Of a stretch of DNA of 64,000 nucleotides, positions 46,642-46,880 are shown piece after piece. The DNA is taken from positions 1 through 64,000 of the IMG/VR virus record IMGVR_UViG_3300021479_000014. One strand, given 5' to 3'. The notes beneath the pieces were generated by a model that did not search any database, was not told the origin of the DNA, and was given only the letters and a program-made list of their open reading frames with translations. Within the stretch, counting starts at the first letter, position 1. Each line of letters opens with the position of its first letter. This stretch comes from a virus. A program made the position numbers and the translations under genes.

Positions 46642-46880
46642 CCCACCGAGGATAAAACCCCGGCAGCGGACGCGTGATTACCGGCTAGTGATGGGTAACA
46701 GGATTGTGCCAGTACATGGCCAGACGTAGCAATAACGCCGTCGCATGTGACTCCAGGTTGCCTGTTATTTTGGCACTACAAGATGAGATTCAGGTCTTCG
46801 GTGGGTGTGGTATCATTGCCTGTGAAATCTCATAACGTCACGTATTGGCGCTGCTATCGGAATGGGCCGGTAGCAGCGCC
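46642..46880 (+). ncRNA. structured ncRNA with two predicted pseudoknots
   Basis: Two crossing helix pairs plus a 14-bp terminal hairpin. Confidence 0.65.

Follow-up and report, generated by a model that had tools for sequence, protein, structure and literature searches.

A new family of doubly pseudoknotted RNAs in the operons of uncultured phages, and its possible part in read-through control

A genuinely new and well supported RNA family, matching no catalogued RNA family, was identified in uncultured phages. The member described here lies in a window of 64,000 nucleotides, which makes up the first 64 kb of the record of an uncultured virus (IMGVR_UViG_3300021479_000014; 80.6 kb), where its core occupies positions 46642-46843 on the plus strand. 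In the fold of the RNA, helices A, B and D meet in a three-way junction, which is locked by two interleaved H-type pseudoknots. As to function, control of read-through (antitermination) is added as a fourth candidate to the ribozyme, riboswitch and decoy named in a preliminary description of the region and is ranked first, with considerable doubt.

In the window the order is a divergent promoter region, the first small HTH gene behind it, and then the element. The element belongs to a 17.6-kb co-directional operon (46256-63943) that opens with the XRE-like gene and closes with a strong terminator (63919-63943); this replication operon includes genes for a ligase, a Pam3 gp34-like protein, a polymerase and others. 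The plus strand of the region has a predicted fold of -100 kcal/mol (z = -3.27 relative to shuffled sequences), which is closed by the 11-bp helix 46642-652/46795-805 and followed by a 14-bp hairpin. The parts of the element and its immediate neighbours are:

46256-46636 (+): upstream gene, a small HTH (XRE-like) regulator and the first gene of the rightward operon (ORF list).
46642-46652 (+): 5′ strand of P1, pairing with 46795-46805; its 3′ end is purine-rich.
46653-46666 (+): linker with a C-tract and a conserved GCA-N (alignments).
46667-46669 (+): 5′ strand of Pk2 (CGG), pairing with 46681-46683.
46672-46678 (+): 5′ strand of helix A, pairing with 46837-46843.
46681-46683 (+): 3′ strand of Pk2 (CCG), followed by a conserved G-C/U-N-A (alignment, covariation).
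46686-46778 (+): helix B (46686-90 with 46774-78) and its lineage-specific extension of about 83 nt (alignments, covariation).
46779-46783 (+): invariant junction strand CAAGA (alignments).
46784-46794 (+): 5′ side of helix D, made up of D-lower (46784-88), UU and D-upper CAGG (46791-94) (covariation).
46795-46805 (+): 3′ strand of P1 inside the D loop (covariation, pairing score).
46819-46835 (+): 3′ strand of D-upper (CCUG, 46819-22), UGAAA, 3′ strand of D-lower (46828-32) and UAA; the UGAAA and the junction UAA are conserved.
46837-46843 (+): 3′ strand of helix A, the 3′ boundary of the conserved core.
46847-46880 (+): 14-bp GC-rich hairpin with a weak U-rich tail (CUCUUAC from 46880), present in some lineages only (covariation in the subfamily).
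46898-47128 (+): Shine-Dalgarno sequence (46898-902) and a 72-aa ORF (46910-47128) (ORF list).

The neighbouring genes had been named an XRE gene and an alpha-CTD-like gene. The first name holds weakly: the upstream gene, whose stop codon ends 5 nt before P1 in the window, resembles XRE/HTH_3 and HTH_31 domains at an E-value of 4.6e-4, below the Pfam cut-off, and is classed by PHROG as a transcriptional regulator. The second name was not sustained, the downstream gene being the 72-aa ORF, for which no Pfam or PHROG family was found. This ORF has only one distant viral relative, yielded no usable relatives when used as a search query, and is absent from close relatives, in which a MKYK wHTH gene stands directly after the hairpin. 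The contrast of a GC-rich element with AT-rich surroundings, in turn, was borne out (GC 0.48-0.505 in the element region versus 0.33-0.41 in the flanks).

The strands of the RNA follow one another in the order P1a, Pk2a, Aa, Pk2b, B, Da, P1b, Db, Ab. In pseudoknot 1 the 5′ tail pairs into the loop of helix D to form P1 (11 bp), which crosses helices D and A, and in pseudoknot 2 the loop of the 3-bp hairpin Pk2 contains the 5′ strand of helix A, and Pk2 crosses that helix; both termini of the RNA are tied into pseudoknots. Helix B encloses a variable insert, which in the window takes the form of an extension including 46694-702/46761-769, and is in other lineages reduced to a 3-bp stem with a GAAA loop. 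Approximately 25-35 positions are invariant or nearly invariant, most of them in junctions and internal loops around the freely covarying helices. The CAAGA strand belonged to the scan pattern used to collect homologues, and its invariance among the scan-found members is partly by construction; it is invariant also in the members found through a neighbouring protein, independently of the pattern. Members with the C-tract in the linker also have a GG immediately before the 3′ strand of helix B, and members without the one lack the other; because of this co-occurrence a further tertiary contact may be proposed between the two. Pairing of the C-tract as an anti-Shine-Dalgarno sequence against the next gene was considered and rejected, as the tract tracks the GG in the helix B loop and not a Shine-Dalgarno sequence. 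Across members the first 4 nt past helix A often read A-C/A-U-U (ACUU, AACU, AAUU, AUUG), which could be a site of the RNase E type, could pair with the AAG of CAAGA or could simply be an AU-rich spacer.

The fold was evaluated by covariation counts on a model-fitted alignment of 31 sequences. In the proposed structure 87.9% of the cells were paired, compared with 34-49% when the partners were slid by 1-3 columns, and the covariation score was 0.57 as opposed to 0.10-0.14 after sliding, a value reached by none of 500 shuffles. Double changes occurred at all 11 pairs of P1 and at all five pairs of D-lower (98.7% paired), and both sides had changed at six of the seven pairs of helix A. The variable N:N′ pair of D-upper was seen as UA, AU, GC and CG. 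The middle pair of Pk2 was G-C (n = 18) or C-G (n = 13) and broken in none; Pk2 is still the weakest helix, having one covarying pair, behind which there may be few evolutionary events. Since the alignment was out of register in P1 and helix A for some lineages, these helices were also scored directly, with a mean pairing score for cognate strands of 10.1 in P1 (non-cognate 5.4, sd 1.7) and 6.5 in helix A (non-cognate 2.6). The frequent G-U pairs fix the plus strand, because they would be C-A on the other strand; a minus-strand or DNA-level element was rejected on this ground and by the RNA contigs described below. Likewise, a protein-coding origin was rejected from the pairing pattern and from the segment between Pk2 and CAAGA, which is 11 to 100 nt long. 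Although mechanical ORFs of 43-57 aa overlap the region, which had been described as free of any ORF, its length variation and covariation pattern are those of non-coding sequence.

The compact tertiary-structured RNA proposed in the preliminary description was in this way recovered as a multi-pseudoknot fold backed by covariation in at least 49 distinct homologues. The two outer helices recognised there, P1 (46642-652/46795-805) and D (46783-794/46819-833), exist and cross each other, with compensatory changes family-wide, and the 14-bp hairpin (46847-60/46867-80) is real and covaries inside the subfamily of the window. The inner pseudoknot was retained in one arm only. Its arm 46694-702/46761-769 is the helix B extension and carries compensatory changes in close relatives, whereas the arm 46706-712/46770-776 pairs in the window only, is disturbed by insertions or changes in relatives and clashes with the 3′ strand of helix B (46774-78), a strand kept throughout the family; it was the one helix of that description left without covariation. 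Helices A (46672-78/46837-43), B (46686-90/46774-78) and Pk2 (46667-69/46681-83) were absent from it and are added here.

Homologues were collected by two routes. A search with the XRE-like protein gave 80 related viral loci, of which 12 had the element right after the gene and two more carried a diverged copy in another slot, without the hairpin. In most of these relatives the XRE gene abuts the MKYK wHTH gene, and RNA and hairpin are both missing. The second route was a scan for a pattern derived from the conserved blocks (CAAGA, five bases, TTC-N-GG, 20-36 bases, GTGAAA, five bases, TAA), which fixes some of the "invariant" letters by construction; the same letters are present in the members found via the neighbouring protein. 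Viral contigs contained 45 stretches matching the pattern, metagenome contigs more than 119, and 185,579 species genomes 64. Matches were filtered by a profile, the covariance model R1 and a structural parse, and the sole survivor from the species genomes was L268, from a Cellvibrionaceae MAG. After filtering, the family comprised at least 49 sequence-distinct cores of 115-208 nt from uncultured phages, mostly of soil. The GC content of the element ranged from 0.48 to 0.63 across members, a spread that suggests varied hosts. A 14-mer scan of viral contigs was discarded because its matches were mostly due to chance, and BLAST searches against cultured phages with the elements of the window, L238 and L268 gave nothing usable.

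Each phage contained one or two copies. One copy was present in the window phage and in each of four other records (two complete, two approximately 80-85% complete), and two diverged copies were present in the complete phage G002 (77.7 kb), one per divergently transcribed arm, with the divergent early control region between them and with different P1 and helix A sequences. Among cultured phages a weak core variant (23 bits), with a 9-nt D loop and no P1, was detected in Rhizobium phage RHph_TM3_14A, and could serve as an experimental entry point. A promoter-like TTGACA-17-TAATCT lies ahead of it, and behind it come a GC-rich hairpin and a ribosome-binding site. The positions are:

L426 3846-3989 = G002:C1:34845-34988 (-): left copy of G002, behind the first gene of the leftward arm.
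L426 8995-9122 = G002:C1:39994-40121 (+): right copy of G002, 4.4 kb into the rightward arm, before a YqaJ recombination gene.
L424 4470-4680, MN988472.1 approximately 30283-30493: Rhizobium phage variant, found via its DUF2201 neighbour; the variant itself occupies 30342-30436.

That the RNA belongs to no recognisable family, as first stated, agrees with the searches of Rfam 15, in which neither the window nor the loci of ten relatives had a match. There were 0 matches in the whole window at the gathering score, sub-threshold ROSE_3 and freshwater-2 hits alone at E <= 10, on the hairpin and ribosome-binding site, and no match, ribozymes included, at the ten relatives' loci at E <= 1. ARAGORN found no tRNA or tmRNA in the window. 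6S RNA, a long rod with a central bubble, was rejected, as the covarying fold is branched and pseudoknotted and no Rfam 6S match was obtained, and so were the known self-cleaving ribozyme classes, for which no model matched and the strand order differs. Elsewhere in the window, over 32000-38500, Rfam recovered no hammerhead at the gathering score or at E <= 1, and a single match resembling the CUGANGA...CGAAA core was located, at 37583-37601. No description was found in searches of the full-text literature. Over 10,000 unnamed RNA candidates have been catalogued from the same virus collection (PMC10690425), and the RNA may be listed anonymously among them.

Expression was detected in three soil metatranscriptome runs (three studies, one year), each with one contig on the 1.4-kb stretch examined, at 99% identity or more:

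46660-46830 (strand not given by the contig): contig of one run.
46654-46830 (strand not given by the contig): contig of another run.
46668-46839 (strand not given by the contig): contig of the remaining run.

The three contigs, each whole and 171-177 nt long, jointly span 46654-46839, and give neither the exact RNA ends nor the strand. Shares below 0.2 in DNA runs and run X4, of unknown type, were excluded from this evidence. Neither the flanking genes nor the 14-bp hairpin were covered in the three RNA runs, and this silence of the flanks argues against DNA carry-over. The core outlasts or outnumbers its mRNA and is present in the libraries as a discrete piece of about 190-200 nt. The contigs are continuous over 46668-46830, so that no efficient cut occurs there. 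The RNA is read from the plus strand, within a polycistronic early/replication transcript.

The element is fitted closely between its neighbouring genes. Of the 49 cores among the matches listed, 45 had an upstream ORF that could be found, and in every one of these the distance from the end of its stop codon to the start of P1 was between -14 and +15 nt (median +2). The next start codon follows helix A at a median of 34 nt (range 16-197), or about 65 nt with a hairpin between, and every member has a ribosome-binding site right behind the element. Purines make up 91% of the inner five nucleotides on the 5′ side of P1 (RGGR, resembling a Shine-Dalgarno sequence), and the opposing 3′ strand, rich in pyrimidines, is anti-Shine-Dalgarno-like. 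A single orientation within operons is strictly kept. The neighbouring genes are diverse and include HTH regulators, DUF2201, HNH, SSB, YqaJ, Tad2-like and unknowns; in L204 a gene for a Tad2-like (anti-Thoeris) protein (1041-1304, minus strand) comes right after the RNA. In about seven of 17 gene maps, representing 16 lineages besides that of the window and read by hand for position, with no statistics, the element was within one to three genes of a strand switch, usually with a small HTH gene before it and long co-directional arrays after it. In L201, L237 and L208 it is placed mid-operon with no promoter nearby, and what lies upstream in L420, in the left copy of G002 and in the Rhizobium phage variant is a gap or promoter region, not an ORF.

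In several lineages that are unrelated to one another in the sequences of P1 and helix A (the window subfamily, L313, L420, L307, L321 and the variant of the Rhizobium phage), a GC-rich hairpin or textbook terminator stands directly after the core. These hairpins begin 3-12 nt past helix A and do not overlap the fold, and no conserved alternative pairing of them with helix A or P1 was found. L420 and L313 have an intrinsic terminator placed between the RNA and the gene that follows. About three quarters of the members have no hairpin ahead of the next ribosome-binding site. The hairpin of the window (46847-46880) has a poor U-tract and was not called by a strict terminator scan; it is possibly a weak terminator, a processing hairpin or a stabiliser. 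RNA and hairpin behave as one module, since relatives without the RNA lack the hairpin and their flanking genes abut. In three lineages that differ in their downstream genes (window 46880-46886; L211/L314/L362/L415; L223), the word CUCUUAC was noticed at a distance of 7-36 nt past the core; it could be a boxA-like site or no more than a U-rich tail.

By analogy with known phage systems, the RNA is regarded tentatively as a candidate put/nut-like cis-acting read-through (antitermination) RNA, a reading that we place first but consider doubtful. The folded RNA would act in cis on the transcription complex that had just made it, and RNA polymerase would thereby read through the hairpin or terminator behind it and then through the long downstream operon. 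This would be factor-independent processive antitermination like that of HK022 put or lambda nut, achieved by an unrelated and more elaborate fold. As P1 begins at the upstream stop codon, a ribosome terminating there must melt it transiently, and folding might, speculatively, depend on whether the regulator gene upstream is being translated. Read-through control is suggested by the preference for operon heads, the order cro, RNA and hairpin, the layout on two arms and the terminators that recur without overlapping the fold. The diversity of neighbours and of host GC suggests a universal partner such as RNA polymerase, and the diversity of flanking genes argues against a gene-specific switch. 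The slot in the window (HTH gene, RNA, hairpin, 17.6-kb operon) is equivalent to the cro-nutR/putR-tR1 slot. The put RNA is reported to remain bound to, and protected by, the elongation complex (PMC9378689), and the discrete surviving RNA would be compatible with protection of this type. Against read-through control stand the roughly three quarters of members without a nearby terminator, the several members that are mid-operon with no promoter near and the failure of the window hairpin in the terminator scan. Moreover, the put fold is different, so that nothing structural joins put and this RNA; a terminator that is always overridden is of no obvious use; and the bare core without its hairpin fits a processed stable RNA at least equally well. 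We give slightly better than an even chance to a broader statement, in which the RNA is a self-cleaving ribozyme of a new class that punctuates phage operons, an aptamer that senses a general cellular signal and gates the replication genes of the phage, or a factor-independent RNA polymerase-modifying RNA unrelated to put.

The element might instead cut the polycistronic transcript at one of its boundaries, as a new self-cleaving or self-processing ribozyme or as an RNase processing signal, which we consider unlikely; hammerhead, twister, hatchet and pistol RNAs make such cuts among phage genes. Its flush position between genes (median 2 nt from stop codon to P1, median 34 nt to the next start), its unrelated flanking genes, its patchy, module-like distribution in close relatives and its 25-35 or so (nearly) invariant junction and loop positions around covarying helices all suit such a role. 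The RNA contigs, which end at both core boundaries and exclude the adjacent hairpin, fit a cut near 46843-46847, but the ends of the RNA are not definable from contigs, neither boundary is marked by a conserved nucleotide and the unbroken contigs over 46668-46830 speak against an efficient internal cut; nor did any known ribozyme model match the window or the ten relatives' loci. A riboswitch, whose junction would bind a general metabolite or second messenger and set read-through or translation downstream, is less likely still. In size, in conservation pattern and in its pseudoknotted three-way junction the RNA resembles typical aptamers, every member has a ribosome-binding site directly downstream, and the order of RNA, terminator and gene in L420 and L313 is a classical leader layout; the P1 3′ strand could also pair with the downstream Shine-Dalgarno sequence once P1 opens. 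Yet the downstream genes share no common function or pathway, no Rfam riboswitch matched, most members have no expression platform at all, and the hairpins that do occur are clear of the fold and have no conserved alternative pairing with helix A or P1.

To a trans-acting stable RNA, a decoy that after its release would titrate a conserved host protein (for instance RNA polymerase, a ribonuclease, the ribosome or a nuclease of a defence system), we assign the same low probability as to the riboswitch. The recovery of the core only, with no neighbouring mRNA, in the three RNA runs is what a decoy would produce, and with its ends tied into pseudoknots resistance to exonucleases is expected; however, the accumulation is perhaps that of a mere decay-resistant remnant. 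Independence from the identity of flanking genes and the Tad2-like anti-defence gene adjoining the element in L204 would accord with a decoy, whereas the strict single orientation in operons, the flush placement between stop codon and ribosome-binding site and the operon-head bias, which suggests action in cis, would not. The least probable of the readings is a device for translational coupling, insulation or mRNA stability that spans two cistrons and has its P1 opened by the terminating ribosome, which would alter access to the next ribosome-binding site or shield the ends of the neighbouring mRNA. The distance of P1 from the stop codon (-14 to +15 nt) means that a terminating ribosome must unwind it, and the 91% purine, Shine-Dalgarno-like 5′ strand has an anti-Shine-Dalgarno-like partner. 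Simple hairpins would suffice for this purpose, however, and the many (nearly) invariant junction positions, about 25-35, are hard to explain by it; furthermore, in L420, the left G002 copy and the Rhizobium phage variant the element comes after a gap or promoter region and not after an ORF, and the neighbouring mRNA is not co-enriched in the RNA runs.

The family is sufficiently defined for work at the bench: at least 49 distinct sequences are available, the minimal form measures only 115 nt, the compensatory changes are clear, and there are signs of expression. It also provides an annotation model for a recurrent "empty" gap in soil phage genomes. If the RNA overrides a terminator by itself, it would be only the second kind of RNA-only processive antiterminator, after put, and would help to explain how long early operons are expressed in phages without an N-like protein. 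If it modifies the polymerase by an unrelated fold, RNA-only antitermination would have arisen repeatedly and be widespread in soil phages, and self-cleavage or ligand binding would add a new class. The RNA would also be a compact, exonuclease-resistant scaffold.

Among known systems, putL and putR of HK022 are likewise cis-encoded phage RNAs inside early operons; they bind the beta-prime zinc-binding domain and act in cis against pausing and termination. The window copy is situated, like putR, behind the first small regulator gene and before a hairpin, and the complete phage G002 has one copy per divergent arm, as HK022 has; no consistently adjacent protein gene was seen for the present RNA. 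The put RNA is about 70 nt long and consists of two stem-loops in a V shape without a pseudoknot (PMC9378689). In contrast, the RNA described here is a three-way junction of 115-208 nt with two pseudoknots and another conserved core, and as it lacks the defining two-hairpin fold it is not a member of the put family. Many of its members have no nearby terminator, and a put-like layout (promoter, RNA, terminator; copy per arm) is seen in the window, G002 and L420 and is not evident in mid-operon members.

The nutL and nutR sites of lambda offer a similar comparison, as the window RNA is in the same slot, after a cro-like gene and before a hairpin, and the two-arm layout of G002 is alike. No N-like gene was identified here, however, and the RNA is far larger than a nut site. 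The word CUCUUAC behind the element in three lineages may resemble boxA, but a boxA-like word is missing from most members. EAR RNA (RF01735) of the Bacillales, about 120 nt long and pseudoknotted, is located between operon genes and promotes read-through of terminators; its Rfam model gave no match, and it differs in host range and conserved nucleotides.

The small ribozymes found in phages (hammerhead, twister, twister-sister, hatchet, pistol, HDV-like) share the intercistronic position, patchy distribution, pseudoknots and conserved junctions, whereas the strand order of this RNA fits none of their topologies; in HDV, the 3′ strand of P1 is not enclosed by another helix as it is here. Riboswitch aptamers with a three-way junction and a pseudoknot are similar in general architecture and in their position before a ribosome-binding site or terminator, and differ by their consistent gene class, overlapping expression platform and model match, none of which was found for this RNA. 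The flavivirus xrRNAs also combine a three-way junction and pseudoknot-locked ends with a discrete, decay-resistant piece of RNA. They are approximately 70 nt long, belong to eukaryotic RNA viruses, act against Xrn1 and have no sequence relation to the phage RNA, whose own exonuclease resistance we infer from the contigs. RNAs with several interlocked pseudoknots and dozens of invariant junction nucleotides have usually proved to be ribozymes, riboswitches or binders of a core enzyme.
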